Source of the DNA: Stegostoma tigrinum
Taxonomy: Eukaryota
Assembly (NCBI RefSeq): GCF_030684315.1
Contig: NC_081397.1
Span: 11,990,421-12,054,420, forward strand
Reading direction: 5' to 3'
Length of the DNA stretch: 64,000 nt
Shown here: positions 626-64,000 of the stretch, piece by piece
How positions within the stretch are numbered: position 1 is the first letter of the stretch
Layout: each line of letters starts with the position of its first letter
Notes under the pieces: generated by a model
The model's input: the letters and a program-made list of their open reading frames with translations, nothing else
What the model was told of the DNA's origin: nothing
Database searches by the model: none
Program-made: the position numbers and the translations under genes

Positions 626-1264
626 TCATTTCTTTGCTGCTTTCTTGGTCACTTTCGCTTTGGGCTTGGCCTTCGGTTTCCTCGATTTCGGGGCCGGCTT
701 TGCGGCCTTGGGGCTCTTGGTCTTTATCACCTTCTTCACGGGAGTCTTTTTCTTCGGCGCTGCTTTCTTCGCCGGTTTCTTCGGCGTTGCTGCCTTCTTG
801 CCGCCCGCTTTCTTGCCGGTTGCTTTCTTGGCTGGGGACTTCTTCGCTGCCACCTTCTTGGCCGTTGTTTTCTTCACGGCTGCTTTCTTGGCGGCTGCTG
901 CTGGTCTCGCCTTCTTTCCCACTTTTGCCTTGACTGGATTCTTTGCGAGTTTGAAGGAGCCGGAGACGCCCTGGCCCTTCACCAGAACCAGGGAGCCTTT
1001 CGCCAGGCACCTCTTGGTCGCCATCCTGATCTGTGCATTTTGCTTCTCCACATTGACCCCGCTTCTCTGCAGCGCCTTCTTTATAGTGACCAGAGACGTC
1101 CCCTTCCGATCGCTGTTCTCCCCGACAATCTTCACAATCCGCTCGCCCAACCCGGGACCGGCTGGTTTCTTCCTGGGAGCCGCCGCCTTCTTCTTCTTTG
1201 GAGACTTGGGTTTGGTGCTGCCGGAGGCTGGAGGAGCCGTTTCGGCGGCTGCACTGTCGCTCAT
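626..1264 (-). CDS. H1: Histone H1 (replication-dependent, 212 aa, divergent globular domain)
   Basis: Intronless ORF MSDSAAAETAPPA..., winged-helix end KGQGVSGSFKLAK, K/A/P-rich tail; histone stem-loop just downstream. Confidence 0.96.
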   Translation of the reverse strand: MSDSAAAETAPPASGSTKPKSPKKKKAAAPRKKPAGPGLGERIVKIVGENSDRKGTSLVTIKKALQRSGVNVEKQNAQIRMATKRCLAKGSLVLVKGQGVSGSFKLAKNPVKAKVGKKARPAAAAKKAAVKKTTAKKVAAKKSPAKKATGKKAGGKKAATPKKPAKKAAPKKKTPVKKVIKTKSPKAAKPAPKSRKPKAKPKAKVTKKAAKK

Positions 1265-18234: not shown

Positions 18235-18615
18235 ATGCCGGATGAGAAGAAAGCGCAGGCAACTTCCAAGAAGGGCGCCAAGAAAATCATCAAGAAGGCG
18301 CCGGGGAAAGGCGGCAAGACAAAGAAACGATCCAGGAAAGAAAGTTACGCCATCTACATCTATAAAGTGATGAAGCAGGTTCACCCCGACACCGGCATCT
18401 CCTCCAAGGCGATGAGCATCATGAACTCGTTCGTCAAGGATATTTTCGAGCGTATCGCAGGGGAGGCTTCCCGCCTGGCCCATTACAACAAGCGCAGGAC
18501 CATCAGCTCCCGGGAGATCCAGACCGCGGTGCGGCTGCTGCTGCCTGGGGAGCTGGCCAAGCACGCCGTGTCGGAGGGTACAAAGGCGGTGACCAAGTAC
18601 ACCAGCTCCAAGTGA
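18235..18615 (+). CDS. H2B: Histone H2B (126 aa), with N67K relative to canonical
   Basis: MPDEKK...[14 protein letters not shown]...AVTKYTSSK; true ATG at 18235. Confidence 0.97.
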
Positions 18616-20464: not shown

Positions 20465-20917
<453 letters not shown>

Positions 20918-21722: not shown

Positions 21723-22160
<438 letters not shown>

Positions 22161-23218: not shown

Positions 23219-23539
<321 letters not shown>

Positions 23540-24019
23540 TCACTCCAATCGCTGCCGAGTGAGAGCCGAGCTGCCTCGCCTTCCATTTTTATACAGCCCG
23601 CCCCGACCTGACTGAGAAACAGCTGACAGGGAGTGAGAGGATACCCGGGCAGAAAACTGAGTGACACACAGAGAAATGTCCAGCTCCGCCTACAGCTGAC
23701 TGCCGCCCCCAACTGGATCTGGAACTAAACCTTTTCTCCACAAGCGCAGTGAACACAAGGCCCGGCAGAAAACCTGCAGACTCAAACTTCTATTCAAAGA
23801 TAATAAAACCTGGATATTTTAAAAGCAAGATGACAAAGTATGAAGCTGGATGAACACAGCAGGCCAAGCAGCATCTCAGGAGCACAAAAGCTGATATCAC
23901 TGATACAATTTTAAAAGCAGAGATAATGGGAACTGCAGATGCTGGAGAATTCCAAGATAGTAAAATGTGAGGCTGGATGAACACAGCAGGCCAAGCAGCA
24001 TCTCAGGAGCACAAAAGCT

Positions 24020-24047
24020 GACGTTTCGGGCCTGGACCCTTCATCAG
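24020..24047 (-). ncRNA. Minimal hammerhead ribozyme motif
   Basis: CTGATGA-AGGGTCCAGGCCC-GAAACGTC on minus. Confidence 0.75.
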
Positions 24048-25323
24048 AGAGGGGGATGGGGAGAGGGAACTGGAATAAATAGGGAGAGAGGGGGAGGCGG
24101 GCCGAAGATGGAGAGTAAAGAAGATAGGTGGAGAGAGTATAGGTGGGGAGGTAGGAAGGGGATAGGTCAGTCCAGGGAAGACGGACAGGTCAAGGAGGTG
24201 GGATGAGGTGAGTAGGTAGATGGGGGTGCGGATTGGGGTGGGAGGAAGGGATGGGTGAGAGGGAGAACCGGTTAGGGAGGCAGAGGCAGGTTGGACTGGT
24301 TTTGGGATGCAGTGGGTGGGGGGGAAGAGATGGTCTGGTTGTGTGGTGCAGTGGGGGGAGGGGATGAACTGGGCTGGTTTTGGTATGCAGTAGGGGAAGG
24401 GGAGATTTTGAAACTGGTGAAGTCCACATTGATACCATATGGCTGCAGGGTTCCCAAGCGGAATATGAGTTGCTGTTCCTGCAACCTTCGGGTGGCATCA
24501 TTGTGGCAGTGCAGGAGGCCCATGATGGACATGTCATCTAAAGAATGGGAGGGGGAGTGGAAATGGTTTGCGACTGGGAGGTGCAGTTGTTTGTTGCAAA
24601 CTGAGCGGAGGTGTTCTGCAAGGCGGTCTCCAAGCCTCCGCTTGGTTTCCCCAATGTAGAGGAAGCCGCACCGGGTACAGTGGATGCAATATACCACATT
24701 GGCAGATGTGCAGGTGAACCTCTGCTTAATGTGAAATGTCATCTTGGGGCCTGGGATAGGGGTGAGGGAGGAGGTGTGGGCTACACTTGCGTCCCAGTCA
24801 CAAACCATTTCCACTCCCCCTCCCATTCTTTAGATGACATGTCTATCATGGGCCTCCTGCACTGCCACAATGATGCCACCCGAAGGTTGCAGGAACAGCA
24901 ACTCATATTCCACCTGGGAACCCTGCAGCCTAATGGGATCAATGTGGACTTCACCAGTTTCAAAATCTCCCCTTCCCCAACTACATCCCTAAACCAGCCC
25001 AGTTCGTCCCCTCCCCCCACTGCACCACACAACCAGCCCAGCTCTTCCCCCCAACCCACTGCATCCCAAAACCAGTCCAACCTGTCTCTGCCTCCCTAAC
25101 CGGTTCTTCCTCTCACCCATCCCTTCCTCCCACCCCAAGCCGCACCCCCATCTACCTACTAACCTCATCCCACCTCCTTGACCTGTCCGTCTTCCCTGGA
25201 CTGACCTATCCCCTCCGTACTTCCCCACCTATACTCTCTCCACCGATCTTCTTTACTCTCCATCTTCAGCCCGCCTCCCCCTCTCTCCCTATTTATTCCA
25301 GAACCCTCTCCCCATCCCCCTCT

Positions 25324-25351
25324 CTGATGAAGGGTCTAGGCCCGAAACGTC
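25324..25351 (+). ncRNA. Minimal hammerhead ribozyme motif
   Basis: CTGATGA-AGGGTCTAGGCCC-GAAACGTC. Confidence 0.75.
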
Positions 25352-25599
25352 AGCTTTTGTGCTCCTGAGATGCTGCTTGGCCTGCTGTGTTCATCCAGCC
25401 TCACATTTTATTATCTTGGAATTCTCCAGCATCTGCAGTTCCCATTATCTCCAATACCAGAGAGATTCGGGATTGTAGTGGGGGTTGTAGTGATAGACCT
25501 TGCTGTTAGGGTGGATGGAGTCTATATCAAGTCTGATCAGTGTGTGTGAGGGTAAAACTGTGTCACAGAGTCGTGCAGTAAGGCATCCTTTGGCTTGGG

Positions 25600-40667: not shown

Positions 40668-40829
40668 GTGTTTTTGCCGTGTAGGGCTTGCTTAGCTCAG
40701 TTGAGTGTCTGGTCGTGCTGAAAGCGTGTGGTTCAGTTTTTGCACTGGTTGAGTTTGCTGGGAATGATCGTCGCCCTTTGCCTTAGTTGTGGTGACCCTC
40801 AGGTTAAACAGTAAAACACTTGTTGCTGT

Positions 40830-41437
40830 TGTGTCCCTCTCTCCGTCCCTCTCTCTGTCCCTCTCTCTGTCCCTCTCTCTGTCCCTCTCTCTGTCCCTCT
40901 TTCTCTGTCCCTCTTTCTCTGTCCCTCTTTCTCTGTCCCTCTTTCTCTGTCCCTCTCTCTCTGTCCCTCTTTCTCTGTCCCTCTTTCTCTGTCCCTCTCT
41001 CTGTCCCTCTCTCTCTGTCCCTCTCTCTCTGTCCCTCTCTCTCTGTCCCTCTCTCTCTGTCCCTCTTTCTCTGTCCCTCTCTCTGTCCCTCTTTCTCTGT
41101 CCCTCTCTCTCTGTCCCTCTTTCTCTGTCCCTCTTTCTCTGTCCCTCTTTCTCTGTCCCTCTTTCTCTGTCCCTCTTTCTCTGTCCCTCTCTCTGTCCCT
41201 CTCTCTCTGTCCCTCTCTCTCTGTCCCTCTCTCTCTGTCCCTCTCTCTCTGTCCCTCTCTCTCTGTCCCTCTTTCTCTGTCCCTCTCTCTGTCCCTCTCT
41301 CTCTGTCCCTCTCTCTCTGTCCCTCTTTCTCTGTCCCTCTTTCTCTGTCCCTCTTTCTCTGTCCCTCTCTCTGTCCCTCTCTCTGTCCCTCTTTCTCTGT
41401 CCCTCTCTCTCTCCCTCTCCCTGTCTCTCTCTCTCTG
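40830..41437. repeat. 10-12 bp pyrimidine-rich tandem repeat (CTCTCTGTCC / CTCTTTCTCTGTCC)n
   Basis: Direct; lies in the intron between the two paralog-B exons. Confidence 0.97.
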
Positions 41438-41535
41438 CAAGGAGACAACGGTGACTCTACATGAACCACCTGCTAAAAACATAACTTTGCTGATTAAAAA
41501 TTAACTGCCAGCTTTTTCACTACAAAATAACTTAC

Positions 41536-55063: not shown

Positions 55064-55183
55064 TTACTTGTGTGGAATATTCTCGTAAACATTTCCATCC
55101 GCTCTGTCTTCTTCCTCTGAGAGCTCGCTGAGGTTCAGTGTGGCGTATGTGATACAGGAATCATTGGGGTCAGGCTTGGCATC
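55064..55183 (-). CDS. Immunoreceptor tail, terminal exon (DAKPDPNDSCITYATLNLSELSEEEDRADGNVYENIPHK*)
   Basis: Pyrimidine-rich acceptor ...ttgcAG, phase 0; ITIM ITYATL and VYENI; TAA at 55064-55066. Confidence 0.85.
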   Translation of the reverse strand, partial: DAKPDPNDSCITYATLNLSELSEEEDRADGNVYENIPHK

Positions 55184-56249
55184 CTGCAATTGGAATGATA
55201 TTGGAATGGAATTGGAATTGAGTGGGAGCAGGAAGGTGAAGAGGTGAGAGAGGCCATTTGTAGTTAAAGGTAGGAGTGGATATCAGTGGGAAACAGGAAT
55301 CACCAACAGGAAGTTCAGTGCCACAAGTTAGGAATCTGGGTAGTGCAGTGGTAATTTCCCTACCTCTGAGCCAGGAGGCTGGGGGTCAAGTCCCACCTGT
55401 GCCTGAGGTGTGCCATACAGATGATAAAAGTGGGAAGGTGATGTCAGAGCTGTACAGGACTTTGGTGAGGCTGCAGCTGGAGCACTGTGTGCAGTTCCAG
55501 TCTCCGCACTATAGTAAGGATGTAATTGCACTGGAGGGGGTGCAGAGGGATATTCACCAAGATATTGCCTGGGTCAGAACATTTCACCAGTGAAGTGAGG
55601 CTGGACAGGCTCAGGTCGATGCTTGGAGCAGAAAAGGCTGAAAGGGCTTTTGATTTGTTTCCATTCACTCAGGGACATTGGCATTGCTGGCTGGGCCCAG
55701 CATTTGTTGCCCTGTCCCTAGCTGCCCTCTTGAGAAGGTGGTATTGAGCCGCCTTCTTGAGCTGCTCCAGCCCCATTTCCTGTAGGTTGACTCACAATGC
55801 GCTTCAGGAGGGAACTCCAGGATTTTCACCCAGTGACACTGAAAGAACAGCCAATGTATTTCCAAGTTGGGATGGTGAGCGGCTTGGAGGGGAACACACA
55901 AGGGGTGGTGTAGCCATGTATCCGCTGCCCGTGTCCTTCTGGATGGATGTGGCTGTGGGTTAGGAAGGTGCCGTCTGGGGATCTTTGGGAAATTTCTGTT
56001 GTGTATCTTGTAGATGGTACATACTGTAGCTACCAATTGGGTGTGAATGACAATGAACTGGCAACTATTTAATGTCACGGTCAGTGATGTTTTAATTCTG
56101 TACAGGAGTAACTGGAACACCAACACCAGTAATGCCACAAGTTTGAAACTCACTTATCCCCAGGCACTGGAAGTGGAATGTGAAACAGTGAGTGACCTAC
56201 TCCATTGATAAAGCATTGCTGGATATTTCCCACTGTGTTTAAAGGCAGG

Positions 56250-57020
56250 CACAAAGCTGGGGGTGAGGGGAGCTGTGAAGGAGGCTACAGGATGCTTCAG
56301 TGTGATTTGGACAATTCAGTAAGTGGCAGCTAATGTAGATCAGCATGAGGTTAACCAACTGAGAGCAAAAACAGGAAGGTGGTGATTATCCAAACAGTGA
56401 TGGAATGGGAGTGGGGGAGGTGCAATGAGACCTGCGTGTCCCCCGTACATCAATCGCTGAAAGTGAGTATCGCAGGGGCAGCGGGTGGTGAAGGAGGCAA
56501 ATGAGATGCCGGCCTTCAAGCGAGAGGGTTCGAGCCCAGGAGCCGGGATATCTTGCTGCAATTGTACAGGGTGAGACCAAACCCTGGAGTATTGTGTGTG
56601 CAGTTTGGGGTCTCCTTATCTGAGAAAGGATGTTCTGGCTATGGAGGGAGTGCAGTGAAGGTTTCACAGACTGATTCCTGGGATGGCAGGATGGACACAT
56701 GAAGAGAGACTGGATTGGCTAGGATTATATTCACTGCAGTTTAGGCGAATAAGGGAAGAATCTCATAGAAATCTGTAAAATTCTAACAGGACTAAATACG
56801 GTAAATACTGGAAGGATGTTCCTAGTGACTGGGAGGAAGTCAAGAACCAGGGGTCACAATATAAAGGAGATAGGTAAGGACTGAGATGAGGCGAAATGTC
56901 TTCACCAAGAGAGTGGGATCCTTGTGGGATTCTCTGCGACAGAACGCAGTCAGGACCAGAAAATTGAATGGGGAGAGCAGGCTGGAATGGCTGAATGGCC
57001 GACTCCAGCTCCTAATTTGT
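56250..57020 (+). mobile_element. CR1 LINE 3' fragment
   Basis: Decayed CR1 ORF2 C-terminus. Confidence 0.8.
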
Positions 57021-57149
57021 AAGGTATTTCCTGTGATCAGTCTGATATGAACCAATAGTTAATGTTTTACTGCGCGGATGTAAGTTATAAATTACCTGCA
57101 CTTCCTGTGGCAATAGCTGTGGTCTATTTAGGCTTAAAATGTAACATAC

Positions 57150-57184
57150 CTCCTTCCCATTCGAGGAGAAACCAACACTGCTGC
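57150..57184 (-). CDS. Immunoreceptor tail, 35-nt exon (GSSVGFSSNGKE), phase 1 to 0
   Basis: ctgttttattttcAG|...GAG|GTATGT; phases fit both neighbouring exons. Confidence 0.8.
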
Positions 57185-58397
57185 CTGAAAATAAAACAGA
57201 CTAAGTTGAGAAGGAACTCTTTGGAGACATTGACGATTCAATTTGGACGAATTGAAGGCTGATCAACATTAAAGATGTAACTGAATCTTTCAAAAGCATG
57301 GCTGTGTTTTTATATTGGTGCAATGCTTAATAAATTGTCCTCCTCAATCAGCCCAGAAACTTCAGAAGATTGCATTTAGAAACCTCGCTCTGGCTAAAGC
57401 CTACAATTTGCATTCAGGTCAATCACACAGCGGGTCAGTTTTTTAGGATGCAGGTCATTGCAACATCTTCAGCAGGCCGCCTTAATCTTATCAGCCTTTG
57501 CATGACTCGCCCTGTTGTTATACATGAAAACGACAAGAGTGAACCATACAGATAACGTCCATTTGGGTTTTAGAGTCACACAGCATGCAAACAGACCCTT
57601 TGGTCCATCGAGTCCATGCCAAGCATAATCCCAAATTAAAATGGTTCCATCTGCCTGCATCTGGCCCATATCCCTCCAAACCATTTCAATTAATGTACTT
57701 AAAGTGTCCACTGTCAACTTTAATTCCTTTAAAATAAATTCAACAGTTGCTCATAAATGTAGGAATTTAGGAAAGAACACTATTTCAACTCAAGAGTTTA
57801 ATACACTTAGTCTCGTGTCAAACCATCTGAAGAACTAAACTAGACTCACCATATTGTCGACAAACACAGCAAGTCAGGCAGAACTCGGAGAAAAGGAGCA
57901 GTCAACACCTCAGGCACAACCCCCACTTCCAGCCCCGAAGAAGGGCCATACCCGAAACGCTGACCGCTGCCTCCCTCCAGACGTTGCCTGGCTTGCTGTG
58001 TTCTTCCAGCCTCCTGGTTTGTCTATCTTGGATTCCAACATCTGCAGCTTTTTTGTCTCTATACTTATCATATTAGTTGCAATGAGAAACTCTAATTTGT
58101 TCAGTTTTGTTTCATTGAAAGTCACACACCTTAGGAAAGAAACATTGTTTATTGAGAACTTACTGTATTCCAGGATTGCTTTTTATGCAAAAATAGGAAT
58201 TTGAGAATGAATGGACATCCACTCTTGGATGTTATATCTCTGCCAATGTTGTCCCTTTCAGGACAGCTTCAATAACAATGTGAACATGGTCAAAGGTAGA
58301 AGATAGAGGGTGGTTTTAGCTGTTGCATGCTGATAGTTCCAGATAGCTCAGTTGGCTAGATGGCTGGTTTTTGTCATACATTGACAAATGTATGTCA

Positions 58398-59630
58398 ATG
58401 CCTTACAAACCTTATCGAGTTTTTTGAGGATGTGACTAGGAAGGTTGATGAGGGTCGAGCTGTGGATGTGGTGTATATGGACTTCAGTAAGGCATTTGAT
58501 AAGGTTCCCCATGGAAGGCTCATTCAGAAGGTCAGGAGGAATGGGATACAGGGGAACTTAGCTGCTTGGATACAGAATTGGCTGGCCAACAGAAGACAGC
58601 GAGTGGTAGTAGAAGGAAAAGATTCTGCCTGGAAGTCAGTGGTGAGTGGGGTTCCACAGGGCTCTGTCCTTGGGCCTCTACTGTTTGTAATTTTTATTAA
58701 TGACTTGGACGAGGGAATTGAAGGATGGGTCAGCAAGTTTGCAGACGACACAAAGGTCGGAGGTGTCGTTGACAGTGTAGAGGGCTGTTGTAGGCTGCAG
58801 CGGGACATTGACAGGATGCAGAGATGGGCTGAGAGGTGGCAGATGGAGTTCAACCTGGATAAATGCGAGGTGATGCATTTTGGAAGGTCGAATTTGAAAG
58901 CTGAGTACAGGATTAAGGATAGGATTCTTGGCAGCGTGGAGGAACAGAGGGATCTTGGTGTGCAGATACATAGATCCCTTAAAATGGCCACCCAAGTGGA
59001 CAGGGTTGTTAAGAAAGCATATGGTGTTTTGGCTTTCATTAACAGGGGGATTGAGTTTAAGAGTCGTGAGATCTTGTTGCAGCTCTATAAAACTTTGGTT
59101 AGACCGCACTTGGAATACTGCGTCCAGTTCTGGGCGCCCTATTATAGGAAAGATGTGGATGCTTTGGAGAGGGTTCAGAGGAGGTTTACCAGGATGCTGC
59201 CTGGACTGGAGGGCTTATCTTATGAAGAGAGGTTGACTGAGCTCGGTCTCTTTTCATTGGAGAAAAGGAGGAGGAGAGGGGACCTAATTGAGGTATACAA
59301 GATAATGAGAGGCATAGATAGAGTCGATAGCCAGAGACTATTTCCCAGGGCAGAAATGGCTAGCACGAGGGGTCATAGTTTTAAGCTGGTTGGTGGAAAG
59401 TATAGAGGGGATGTCAGAGGCAGGTTCTTTACGCAGAGAGTTGTGAGAGCATGGAATGCGTTGCCAGCAGCAGTTGTGGAAGCAAGGTCATTGGGGTCAT
59501 TTAAGAGACTGCTGGACATGCATATGGTCACAGAAATTTGAGGGTGCATCCATGAGGATCAATGGTCGGCACAACATTGTGGGCTGAAGGGCCTGTTCTG
59601 TGCTGTACTGTTCTATGTTCTATGTTCTAT
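58398..59630 (+). mobile_element. Young 5'-truncated CR1 LINE with open RT C-terminal frame and (TTCTATG)n tail
   Basis: YMDFSKAFDKVPH, GVPQGSVLGP, FADDTK; splits a tRNA-SINE between its A-box (58344-58355) and B-box (about 59657-59669). Confidence 0.97.
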
Positions 59631-61172
59631 TACATGCCAACCCTTGCCAACAGCATGGGTACAATTCCCACACCAGCTGAGGCTACCCTGAAGGATGCTC
59701 CTTCTGAACCTCTCCCCTCTCCTGAGGCGTGGTGATTCTCTAAAAGTTAAAACACCACCCAGTTCCCCTTCACTCTCTCTCTCCTATGAAAGAGCAGGCT
59801 GGTGGCTATGTAGAACATGACCATTTACTACTCATTCCCTTCAGACAAAGGCTAGAATGTGTTTGAATTCCATTGTACACAAGGCCAACTTCAGTTCAAA
59901 TGTCCCTTGTGGGTGTTGACAGGTATCCGTGTGATAATTGTAAGTTCATCTTTCTGAGCAACAATATGACATGCGGTGCTTTTATTTTCTCTGTCATCTC
60001 AAATCAGCAGGTGGTAGCATTTTGCATATCCGCCTTGCGTATTATATGAGGAAAATGGAACTTGCTTTCTCTCTATCCATAGATGCTGCCAGACCTGCTG
60101 AGCTCCTCCAGAAATATTTGAATTTATTTCTGATGTCCAGCATCCACAGTTCTTAGTTTTAAGAGAAAATGATCTACGTCTGCCTCAGTTAAGTGTAAAA
60201 TGCATGTCCCACTGCTTATGTCACGCACAGAATGTTTCTACATGTACTAAACAGTAATTGGGAAGCGACCGCCTTCATAACACAGTCACCAACACACACG
60301 GCGATATATTTTTATTTCATTCATTCACAAGGTGTCACTGGCCAGGCCAGCATTTATTGCCCACCCCTAACTGTCTCCATTGCTGTGGGTCTGGAGTCAC
60401 ATGTCGGCCTGACCAGGTAAGGATTGCAGCTTCCTTCCCTAAAAAGCATTGGTAAATTCATTGGGCTTTTCCACAACAATTTCATGGTCATTGAACTCTG
60501 AATTCCAGATATTTATTGAATTCAAATTCTGTGGGAGGATTCAAACCCAGGTCCCCAGGACATTAGCCAGGGTCTTTGGATTAACAGTGAAGTGATAATA
60601 TAACTAGACCATACCCCTTCTGTTTGGAATAACCAGATGCGGTGCTGGATGAACACAGCAGGCCAGGCAGGGTCAGAGGAGCAAGAAAGAGGACATTTCA
60701 GGTCTGGACTCTTCTTCATTTTCTGAAACATCGGCTTTCCTGCTCCTCTGATGCTGCCCTGGCCTGCTGTGTTCATCCAGCTCCACACCTTGTTATCTCA
60801 GACTCCAGCATTGGCAGTCCCTGTTAACCATTTCTCATTGCTCTGTGTGTCTGTTCTGAGTCACTGACAACATATAAATCATCTCCAAATCCTTGACCCT
60901 ATCTGCAGGGGAATAAAGGGTCATGGCAGATCAGATCGGGGCTTGTTTCTGATTGGCTGGTTCACTGTCCATTCATTCACAAATCTGGATGTTTCTTTTG
61001 GTAGACCCTCTGTTCCCTCACACTCCTGTCACTGCAAGCACTGTGGTATTTCTCTATTTGGAACTGGCCACACACCGGCGTTTCCACAGTAACTGGGATC
61101 ATGATATTGTTGGAGCTGCAACGATCCTCTGTCTCTCTCTTAAACATAGCATTAAACAAACAAAATATTTAC

Positions 61173-61232
61173 CAGACTCTGTTCTCTTTTTGGTGGTGAC
61201 CACTGAATAAACTATATCCGCAGCGGCGTTTT
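61173..61232 (-). CDS. Immunoreceptor tail, 60-nt symmetric exon (ENAAADIVYSVVTTKKRTES), phase 1 to 1
   Basis: tttatttctttgtAG|...TG|GTAAAT; ITIM IVYSVV. Confidence 0.85.
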
Positions 61233-62060
61233 CTACAAAGAAATAAAGTGCACATGAAAAACACACATCAATCAGAGAGCAGCGCTATAATGGGCTAAAT
61301 GACACATGCAACATCAATGCACAGATTCATGGATAGATAATAAATTTCAGAGCTGGATGGACAAATTTAATCGACTGATGGACGGATAGACAGATGGATG
61401 TTTTAAGATAGAGATAGATAGCTTCTTGATTAAAAAGGGGGATCAAGGGTGATGGGAGAAGGAAGGGGAATGAGATTGACAAACACATCAGCCTTGGTCA
61501 AGTGGCACAGCTGACCTGATGGAAAGAATGGCCTAATTCTGCTCCTATATGTTAGGTCCTGTAGCCTCATTTAGATAAGAAGACGCATAGATAAATAAAT
61601 ATGCATGCAGTTAATATCCTTGGAGATCATTCAGTTCACTACAACCACTATAAAGACTGCTGTACAGGAAGCTTGCTTCCCTTCATTATCACTTGCATGG
61701 AGCACTTGTGTCTCTGAGGAGCCAAGCCTTTGTACACAATCACTCATTGTAACCAACATCAGTTGGATTTCTCAATACCAGAGTACTGCGCCCTCAGTTT
61801 CCGACATTACTTCCGATCAAATAAGCATGTTGTGTCAGGCAAAACACCCTGAAGGAGGTCCAGTCACAAGGTATTAACAGCAACAGCCGTCTGTAAAAGA
61901 CACTGGTTAAAGATAGGGGCTTATAGCTCAGCAGTAGACCCATCAGCGCATCAGGTCTGTGCTGTTCAAAAGCAACCACCTCCCTATTCTCTAATCACAT
62001 TTTCCCAGCACCTGCCTCCATATCCTTGGCATCACAAGTGCACATCTCAATCTTTCTTCA

Positions 62061-63301
62061 ATAGAACATAGAACATAGAACATAGAACAGTACAGCACAG
62101 AACAGGCCCTTCAGCCCACAATGTTGTGCCGACCATTGATCCTCATGTATGCACCCTCAAATTTCTGTGACCATATACATGTCCAGCAGTCTCTTAAATG
62201 ACCCCAATGACCTTGCTTCCACAACTGCTGCTGGCAACGCATCCCATGCTCTCACAACTCTCTGCGTAAAGAACCTGCCTCTGACATCCCCTCTATACTT
62301 TCCACCAACCAGCTTAAAACTATGACCCCTCATGCTAGCCATTTCTGCCCTGGGAAATAGTCTCTGGCTATCAACTCTATGCCTCTCATTATCTTGTATA
62401 CCTCAATTCGGTCCCCTCTCCTCCTCCTTTTCTCCAACGAAAAGAGACCGAGCTCAGTCAACCTCTCTTCATAAGATAAGCCCTCCAGTCCAGGCAGCAT
62501 CCTGGTAAACCTCCTCTGAACCCTCTCCAAAGCATCCACATCTTTCCAAAAATAGGGCACCCAGAACTGGACGCAGTATTCCAAGTGCGGTCTAACCAAA
62601 GTTTTATAGAGCTGCAACAAGATCTCACGACTCTTAAACTCAATCCCCCTGTTAATGAAAGCCAAAACACCATATGCTTTCTTAACAACCCTGTCCACTT
62701 GGGTGGCCATTTTAAGGGATCTATGTATCTGCACACCAAGATCCCTCTGTTCCTCCACGCTGCCAAGAATCCTATCCTTAATCCTGTGCTCAGCTTTCAA
62801 ATTCGACCTTCCAAAATGCATCACCTCGCATTTATCCAGGTTGAACTCCATCTGCCACCTCTCAGCCCATCTCTGCATCCTGTCAATGTCCCGCTGCAGC
62901 CTACAACAGCCCTCTACACTGTCAACGACACCTCCGACCTTTGTGTCGTCTGCAAACTTGCTGACCCATCCTTCAATTCCCTCGTCCAAGTCATTAATAA
63001 AAATTACAAACAGTAGAGGCCCAAGGACAGAGCCCTGTGGAACTCCACTCACCACTGACTTCCAGGCAGAATATTTTCCTTCTACTACCACTCGCTGTCT
63101 TCTGTTGGCCAGCCAATTCTGTATCCAAGCAGCTAAGTTCCCCTGTATCCCATTCGTCCTGACCTTCTGAATGAGCCTACCATGGGGAACCTTATCAAAT
63201 GCCTTACTGAAGTCCATATACACCATATCCACAGCTCGACCCTCAACAACCTTTCTAGTCACATCCTCAAAAAACTCGTTAAGGTTTGTAAGGCATGACC
63301 T
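62061..63301 (-). mobile_element. Young 5'-truncated CR1 LINE, near-identical inverted partner of 58398-59630; 4-nt deletion frameshift near 62375
   Basis: Almost identical translation; (CATAGAA)n at 62061-62090; inserted in an older LINE fragment with an AT duplication. Confidence 0.97.
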
Positions 63302-63917
63302 ATGTGATGAGATATTCTGCCTCTCTCACCCTGACAGGCAGTGAGTTCCAAATTCCCCATCACTGACTGGATGAAAACATTTTCCTTCACATCCCCGTCT
63401 AAACCTCCTGCCCCTTACCTTCAATCCATGTCCCCAACCCCCCGGTCATTGAGTCCTTCAAGAAGGGGTTGGGTTTCTTCCTGTCTCCCGTATGTCTGCC
63501 CCTTATCAGTTTATACACCTCAAAGAAGGAGGAGTTGGCATCTTTGAGGGTGAAAGGGATTGAAGTGTCTGCAGGAGAAAGCTGGGAACTGGGGATTGAG
63601 TCGGATGGTCAGCTGTGACACTACCCAATGGGCCGGCCAATGGGCAGGCTGAATGGCCTCCGCATTTCTCTCAGAACCAGGGACTGAGTTAGATGGTTAG
63701 CTATAATCATAATGTCTGGCAGAACAGGATAGGTGGGCTGAATGGCCTAGTCCTGTTTCCTGGCTGCTGTCCTCCCCTTCAGCCTCCACAGCTCCAAGGA
63801 AAACCACCCCATTCTAGCCCAGCTGACAGCTTGGACGATTGACCAGAATTCCTACCAGGTTATGGTGCACCGTCACTGTGTGGGGCTCTATAACCACACC
63901 GATTCAATGGCACTCAC

Positions 63918-64000
63918 CAGCATTGTGTGCTGCTCCGATTACTGCATACTCCAGGTTGCTGGCTGCTGCCACTTCACCAGAAGCTTGGGATCTATTTCCA
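63918..64000 (-). CDS. Immunoreceptor tail exon, 5' end probably beyond the window (GNRSQASGEVAAASNLEYAVIGAAHNA), ends phase 1
   Basis: Donor CTG|GTGAGT; ITIM LEYAVI; in frame with 61232. Confidence 0.8.

Follow-up and report, generated by a model that had tools for sequence, protein, structure and literature searches.

Introduction

The locus described here raises the question of whether sharks possess inhibitory receptors of the Fc receptor-like (FCRL) family and, if so, whether the copy found at this position still gives rise to one. The window, by which we mean the whole stretch of 64,000 nucleotides (nt) that was analysed, corresponds to C56:11990421-12054420 of Stegostoma tigrinum, C56 being a contig of 15.6 Mb. 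At its far end the minus strand carries the last exons of a receptor gene, encoding a cytoplasmic tail with several inhibitory motifs of the immunoreceptor tyrosine-based type (ITIMs). Positions beyond the window are given in continued window numbering, to which 11990420 is added to obtain the C56 position. With a probability of roughly 0.7, judged from sequence, we consider that the tail belongs to an inhibitory receptor of a shark FCRL lineage and that the start/signal exon has been lost from the window copy, which likely does not function at the cell surface.

The tail exons and the rest of the receptor gene

A preliminary description of the locus had proposed four minus-strand tail exons with canonical splice sites. 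All four are present with AG/GT ends, and the spliced frame is open down to a TAA stop at 55064; the first of them (C2), however, begins at 63991 and not at 64000. Its acceptor AG ends at 63992 and positions 64000-63992 are intron, the first two residues then given for the tail (G and N) being intron-derived and non-coding. The upstream partner of C2 is a 31-nt exon, C1, immediately beyond the window end. The three hexamers matching the ITIM consensus (LEYAVI, IVYSVV and ITYATL) and the YxN site had been read correctly. When the 106-residue tail was shuffled 200,000 times, at least three ITIM hexamers arose in a fraction of 0.000225 of the shuffles, and at least three together with a YxN site in 0.000075. 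NCBI models from the whale shark, from two bamboo sharks and from divergent S. tigrinum paralogs join these five tail exons in the same order, and when the tail is compared with two paralogs, the ratio of nonsynonymous to synonymous substitution rates (dN/dS) stays under 1 in both cases (0.205/0.309 and 0.128/0.249). On these grounds the tail is a real coding feature. Among 15 aligned shark/ray-type tails, four of which are unnamed proteins, the IVYSVV- and ITYATL-type motifs and the terminal YxN are retained throughout (15/15), and the tyrosine of the first motif is missing in 4; the last three tyrosines are therefore likely to form the signalling core. The alternative last exon following C3 (Table 1) would, if used, possibly remove the last two tail tyrosines.

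The next 20 kb contain the exons that had been expected upstream: one for an uncharged transmembrane segment, five phase-1 exons for immunoglobulin (Ig) domains and a signal exon of 30 nt, S2. Joined to the five tail exons, they form a single open frame of 617 codons, with canonical sites at all 12 remaining exons of the window copy. Ig1 to Ig5 obtain their best domain scores with Ig_2 or Ig_3 (C2-type), V-set staying under the cut-off. The 22 proteins matched in a search with Ig4 come exclusively from sharks and bear names such as FCRL or PECAM-like, the one at 99% being from Stegostoma tigrinum itself. Neither is the gene hidden and alone: it is one of 27 copies or fragments on C56, and NCBI has already named it. 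XP_059498345.1, XP_059498346.1 and XP_059498347.1 ("Fc receptor-like protein 3") are identical to the window copy in the five Ig exons; they have a non-signal N-terminus and end after Ig5, the transmembrane segment and tail being unannotated. A remnant of an additional Ig exon lies between S2 and Ig1 (L012:5682-5717, minus strand), and the same type is coding in other paralogs.

Table 1. Features of the window and of the adjoining part of the receptor gene (positions above 64,000 in continued numbering)
Feature	Position	Strand	Remarks
S2 signal exon	83501-83472	-	30 nt
Ig1 exon	78131-77871	-	
Ig2 exon	75935-75654	-	
Ig3 exon	74883-74611	-	
Ig4 exon	73941-73657	-	
Ig5 exon	66645-66343	-	
Transmembrane exon	65536-65435	-	uncharged
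C1 tail exon	64566-64536	-	31 nt
3' end of C1-C2 intron	63992..64000	-	includes acceptor; gene runs on past the window
C2 tail exon	63918..63991	-	start corrected; 74 nt, phase 2 to 1; ITIM hexamer LEYAVI
C3 tail exon	61173..61232	-	60 nt, symmetric phase 1; ITIM hexamer IVYSVV
Possible alternative last exon after C3	60835..60902	-	used in NCBI model P0027 of a sister copy
C4 tail exon	57150..57184	-	35 nt, phase 1 to 0; also in whale shark model
C5, last tail exon	55064..55183	-	phase 0; ITIM hexamer ITYATL, acidic run, VYENI, stop
1.24-kb insertion in C2-C3 intron	62063..63301	-	same element as the next row; common to the four copies lacking S1; not in one intact copy compared
1.24-kb insertion in C3-C4 intron	58387..59628	+	reverse-transcriptase-like open reading frame; not in 4 other copies compared
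Histone H4 gene	23219..23530	-	31.5 kb downstream of receptor stop
Histone H3 gene	21723..22133	-	
Histone H2A gene	20525..20917	+	3' stem-loop 20941-20985
Histone H2B gene	18235..18615	+	3' stem-loop 18654-18699
Histone H1 gene	626..1264	-	17 kb from the H2B-H2A-H3-H4 group

Relationship to FCRL proteins

Several comparisons connect the receptor with FCRL. The sister protein P0027 finds FCRL5 first in the PDB (224.6 bits, colinear over residues 95-460), followed by FCRL4 (85.1), the best non-FcR entry reaching 65.1. In the other direction, a search of the S. tigrinum genome with turtle FCRL, in which a stricter first look left 60 of 218 candidates to be scored, put 58 of the 60 matches listed on C56, C53 and C798, where the family and related neighbours are found; turtle D3, D5 and D6 land on Ig2, Ig4 and Ig5, respectively. 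The best match with tetrapod FCRL is thus reciprocal. We also built a tree from 108 of 170 extracted domains (90 columns), taken from 21 proteins, whose names are automatic NCBI labels, and from genome exons. Ig2 and Ig3 fall in the D3 clade (96/84) with domains of paddlefish, sturgeon, frog, caecilian, turtle, alligator, lion and squirrel, while Ig5 joins the membrane-proximal FCRL domains of paddlefish, frog, caecilian, turtle and alligator (99/92) and is apparently of the D6 type. The assignments of Ig1 as D2-like and of Ig4 as D5-like are weak. The first domain of the adjacent upstream gene belongs to the FCRL D1 clade (97/97).

The tail gives a similar result. In a BLAST comparison with 20 tails it matched those of turtle (4e-5), paddlefish (4e-5) and alligator (5e-5), CD22-like and PECAM1 tails reaching only 2.7 and 80. 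It aligns motif by motif with the alligator, turtle and paddlefish tails, and the alligator FCRL tail contains the same series of four motifs. The AlphaFold model of a further sister protein, P0023, is of high confidence (mean predicted local distance difference test score 87.1) and comprises five Ig domains and a transmembrane helix. A fold search with this model was non-discriminating: PirB, sidekick and titin came top by E-value at 14-22% identity, and FcgRI and FCRL5 had the top target-normalised template modelling scores (0.50-0.59) among the matches listed.

The closest architecture is found in non-mammalian FCRLs ending in a D6-type domain, namely the inhibitory TM2 class of Xenopus XFL and the proteins of turtle, alligator, caecilian and paddlefish. 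These likewise have a C2-only ectodomain of FcR-type subtypes in which D3 is repeated and the membrane-proximal domain is of the D6 type, a signal peptide divided over two exons (S1 and S2 in the shark sister copies), an uncharged transmembrane segment and a multi-exon tail with a matching tyrosine series. The latter two features agree with the inhibitory class as defined in the accessible part of PMC2413239 (uncharged transmembrane segment, multi-exon tail with YxxL/I/V motifs), which also describes the same species-specific expansion with domain shuffling and fragments. That text calls D6 Xenopus-specific; we take the membrane-proximal XFL domain as D6, without that paper's alignment. In contrast to the non-mammalian FCRLs, the shark gene is devoid of D1, which is present in the adjacent gene, its S2 measures 30 nt, no NxxR-type activating transmembrane segment occurs among the shark copies seen, and these copies are interleaved with histone sets.

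Mammalian FCRL2-5 and FcgRI are the best sequence matches in the PDB and share the D3 clade and a 31-nt first signal exon, and an ITIM-rich tail ending in YENV/YENI occurs likewise in the lion protein. However, no domain of the two mammalian FCRLs sampled lies in the D6-type clade. The resemblance that had been pointed out earlier concerned FCRL3, but no feature links the receptor to that member in particular. PECAM1 (CD31) has an ITIM tail as well, and its last domain resembles Ig4, but a separate locus on C26 matches its first and last domains, and PECAM1 residues 18-130 match C26 and not the shark FCRL-like family. As to CD22/Siglec, the receptor has no V-set domain above the cut-off and no domain in the CD22-like clade.

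A number of observations nevertheless weigh against this placement. Approximately unbiased (AU) tests, run on a 39-domain version of the tree with five groupings, rejected only one of them, Ig5 with PECAM1 (p 0.027). Ig5 with CD22-like domains (0.16) and Ig2/Ig3 with PECAM1 (0.29) were not rejected, and Ig4 fits FCRL D5 and PECAM1 equally. A loach PECAM1 query even scores Ig4 at 43.6 bits, compared with 40.7 for the C26 exon. The lion FCRL tail is at chance level (E 18). The second signal exon is 30 nt long in 22/22 S2 exons examined instead of the 21 nt of mammalian FCRL1-6, although S1 fits, and the paralog on C53 is located among CD22/Siglec-like exons. Nicastrin, BolA and PRCC, which we take to be 1q21-23 genes and used as linkage proxies, lie on C59 (Nicastrin) and C60 (BolA and PRCC), none of them on C56 or C53; a SLAM profile search of the genome gave no match, IGSF9, DUSP23 and TAGLN2 not having been searched for. 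Finally, a charged core was found in none of the 27 transmembrane exons and in neither of two neighbouring genes, no genome-wide search for charged transmembrane segments having been made. On the signal exon rule, it may be added that according to the accessible text of PMC2413239 the 30/21-nt arrangement is seen in just a fraction of the genes of Xenopus.

We conclude that the receptor likely represents a cartilaginous-fish branch of the wider FcR/FCRL family, and we do not place it in mammalian FCRL1-6. The proposal of an FCRL-like, ITIM-bearing Ig receptor in cartilaginous fish is supported by the transmembrane and Ig exons, the domain tree, the tail comparison and the reciprocal matches. 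The Ig-domain phylogeny that had been called for speaks for FCRL where Ig2, Ig3 and Ig5 are concerned but leaves Ig4 equivocal.

A family of copies on C56

The last exon, C5, is matched 28 times in the genome. One match is on C53, the other 27 are spread over C56 from 5.5 to 15.2 Mb, and all 28 loci were read individually for gene structure. Most copies are 95-100% identical and lie inside large duplications. Those on C56 comprise seven intact five-Ig copies, one intact shorter copy, two divergent copies with full NCBI models and one uncertain copy; in the remainder, four have S1 deleted, one has lost the S1 donor, four are splice-defective at the IVYSVV exon (one of these also having an S1 acceptor change and a last-exon frameshift) and seven are fragments. 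About ten copies thus look intact, among them the one at C56:15170515. Five copies in which the transmembrane exon adjoins the last exon were considered as tail-less receptors, a possibility that we rejected because 30 kb contain only Ig5, the transmembrane exon and C5, hence fragments. The paralog on C53 encodes a protein of 1059 amino acids, P0013, with duplicated outer domains.

In 11 five-Ig copies, replacement and silent variant codons number 31:11 in Ig1-Ig3 and 10:16 from Ig4 to the tail (Fisher p 0.005, the copies being non-independent), with 8 replacement and 0 silent variant codons in Ig1 alone. This pattern suggests that the part near the membrane is under purifying selection and that change in the outer domains is relaxed or diversifying.

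At C56:13722000-13729000 and at four similar places, 25-29 kb upstream of the short copies, there is a 5' gene fragment made up of an extra S2-like exon and Ig exons, with Ig1 broken.

Loss of the start exon in the window copy

The signal peptide had been predicted to be split between exons. The split exists in the sister copies and S2 is in place in the window copy, but here S1 is deleted. In the sister copies, S1 is a 116-nt exon with the start codon, 2.5 kb before S2, and contributes 31 coding nt counted from the second ATG. In the window copy, S1 and its acceptor are missing as part of a 1.54-kb segment, whose place is taken by 10 filler bases at 84563-84554 (continued numbering), nine of which repeat adjoining sequence, and both flanks of the deletion align to the sister copies at 97-98%. 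No S1 was found within 150 kb upstream of the window copy. When the genome was searched with S1, 12 matches were obtained, and not one of them was at the four copies, the window copy and three sisters, whose last exons are identical. Some divergent S1 exons escaped this search and came to light on alignment, but the four S1-less copies were also read directly, and S1 is absent from each. They differ by 1-6 coding bases, occur in both orientations and have one intron insertion in common, their other insertions differing. Given the few differences and the common insertion, they make up a young clade that goes back to a single deletion event. The 1.24-kb insertions with a reverse-transcriptase-like reading frame are presumably long interspersed nuclear elements (LINEs).

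Without S1, the next in-frame methionine falls inside Ig1, past its first cysteine, and NCBI assigns a non-signal N-terminus to the S1-less copies as well as to the copy with the mutated S1 donor. Deprived of its start/signal exon, the window copy is likely dead as a surface receptor. It counts against this conclusion that the remaining 617 codons contain no stop or frameshift, a state that fits a recent loss and also continued use.

Histone genes and neighbouring receptor loci

A same-strand H4 gene, one of them broken, lies 26-35 kb downstream at 23 of the 27 last exons (tallied by hand). This recurring distance suggests joint duplication of the receptor and the histone set as one block. Of the 62 exact matches to full-length H4 in the genome, C56 carries 59. 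No unrelated protein-coding neighbours were seen in 20 sampled C56 stretches; their 79 candidate frames included 28 non-satellite ones, and none of these passed the Pfam cut-off. C56 is in effect a histone plus immune-receptor microchromosome. It has a repeat-rich gap at ~5.7-8.9 Mb, and 20 samples of 10 kb from 5.76-8.81 Mb consist mostly of tandem or other repeats. Within the window, histone stem-loops (Rfam, gathering threshold) were detected only behind H2B and H2A, and a tRNA search found none. A purine-rich simple tandem repeat at 40692-41504 and two tandem copies of a repeat element at 24000-25370 both yield long spurious open reading frames.

Just upstream of the receptor gene there is a second FcR-like gene (130754-114190, minus strand, continued numbering) with four Ig exons, the first of D1 type, an uncharged transmembrane segment and a related tail with the motifs IVYSVV, VTYASL and IYQNF. 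Its signal exons were not found by a pattern scan. A piece of one of its introns is matched at 13 places, and every one of these lies upstream of either a five-Ig copy or the 5.5-Mb fragment. A third receptor type, P0161 (NCBI "FCRL6", C56:12721839-12743403), also has a four-tyrosine tail, and its locus includes an Ig5-like exon (12730365-12730670) skipped in that isoform. Similar Ig matches recur along C56 from 0.29 to 5.7 Mb, at 11 places in all, and the type is likely to be repeated across these first 5.7 Mb. The C53 paralog (C53:16254298-16452737) sits amid CD22/Siglec-like C2 exons, with broken H4 copies at 17.06-17.09 Mb. PECAM1-like exons are located at C26:10994732-11075343, where the first domain occurs twice, suggesting two tandem PECAM1-like genes. 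The multi-Ig gene at C42:32762939-32774397 falls outside the FCRL-like family in the tree.

Discussion

We propose that the intact sister copies would encode type I membrane proteins on B cells or other leukocytes. By analogy with known inhibitory receptors, ligand binding by the variable outer domains Ig1-Ig3 may lead to phosphorylation of IVYSVV and ITYATL by Src-family kinases, and the phosphorylated ITIMs could then recruit SHP-1/SHP-2 or SHIP and damp an antigen- or activating-receptor signal, with the terminal YxN as a Grb2-type adaptor site. We infer the binding of SHP or Grb2 by the tail from its motifs only. Antibody, class I molecules of the major histocompatibility complex and pathogen surfaces are discussed as ligands of the family in the accessible part of PMC2413239. 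In a bamboo-shark single-cell study, B cells are reported to show high expression of genes named fcrl3, fcrl5 and fcgr1a-like (accessible text of PMC11372145; orthology to the S. tigrinum family unchecked). The locus would be subject to birth-and-death evolution by segmental duplication of the receptor and histone block. The window copy would be a recently disabled duplicate, and any transcripts should give a protein lacking a signal peptide.

Such a copy might still be in use, starting from a different first exon or internally, as a receptor at the surface or inside the cell with its full tail. Besides the intact state of its 12 exons, S1 is preceded by an acceptor, so that a promoter and an untranslated exon farther upstream have probably been preserved; moreover, NCBI lists three isoforms. 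Yet the two NCBI first exons, ~24 kb past the window, provide starts of 11 residues with no hydrophobic core that are spliced directly to Ig1, the position of the internal methionine within Ig1 is unfavourable, and none of the three models includes the transmembrane segment or the tail, which makes continued activity unlikely in our view. A more general idea is that the main products of the family are secreted ectodomains or tail-less forms and that the four-tyrosine tail is seldom spliced in full. Indeed, in an NCBI cluster of 18 members, 14 proteins were read, and 8 of these stop right after Ig5, 2 sooner, 4 have the transmembrane segment and none has the full tail. We hold this to be very unlikely since the tail is under purifying selection and kept in sharks and rays and is complete in the NCBI models of divergent paralogs and orthologs; near-identical copies are probably also hard to resolve for read-based annotation.

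It could further be argued that the receptor is a shark-specific C2-type Ig receptor outside FCRL, kin to PECAM1/Allergin-1, CD22/Siglec or the leukocyte receptor complex, and that its tail is convergent. Several members are named PECAM-like by NCBI, and the proximity of Ig4 to the last PECAM1 domain, the C53 copy inside a CD22-like cluster, the three unlinked 1q21-23 markers and the length of S2 would all be compatible with such an origin. It is, however, difficult to reconcile with the D3 and D6-type clades, the colinear FCRL5 match, the D1-type domain in the adjacent gene, the reciprocal best matches and the distinct PECAM1-like locus, or with a tail that resembles those of non-mammalian FCRLs and not those of PECAM1 or CD22-like proteins; we consider it quite improbable. 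An assembly artefact behind the copy number or the S1 deletion appears hardly credible. Near-identity within large duplications would favour one, and at the deletion junction, which borders a very high-copy repeat, four public runs showed no bridging contig among the pieces listed. On the other hand, the S1-less copies differ in coding bases, orientation and other insertions while having one insertion in common, and the filler at the junction largely repeats neighbouring sequence. We thus retain the interpretation as an FCRL-lineage receptor whose window copy has lost its start exon.

In their accessible parts, PMC4016189 (2014), PMC5742104 (2017) and PMC13337447 (2026) describe cartilaginous fish as lacking FCRL and the family as first appearing in bony fish, and the last of these, a review, asks how sharks achieve Fc-dependent functions. 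The domain trees, the homology of the tails and the reciprocal matches make it quite likely that the FCRL family is older than bony fish. In the literature covered, with most subscription journals outside the search, we found no phylogenetic test of shark FCRL and no account of a histone-FCRL chromosome, PMC10620051 and PMC11406177 having been covered by term search only. The novelty is tempered by the FCRL names already in use in the NCBI automatic annotation of several sharks and rays and in the 2024 bamboo shark single-cell paper (accessible part of PMC11372145).

About ten intact candidate receptors can now be named for testing against shark antibodies. The value of the window copy itself lies less in the gene than in its being a marker of fast turnover, of which the deletion of the start exon, the loss of splice sites and of domains, and the fragments are signs, all within blocks co-duplicated with histone genes. 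In the human genome, FCGR1 and HIST2 genes are likewise neighbours. Tentatively, and with considerable doubt, we can envisage that sharks and rays have a genuine expanded FCRL lineage inherited from the jawed-vertebrate ancestor, that its intact members may be the missing Fc receptors for IgM, IgW or IgNAR, that the D6-type domain and the four-tyrosine tail might be ancestral, and that the histone tie could be the counterpart of the human FCGR1-HIST2 neighbourhood.

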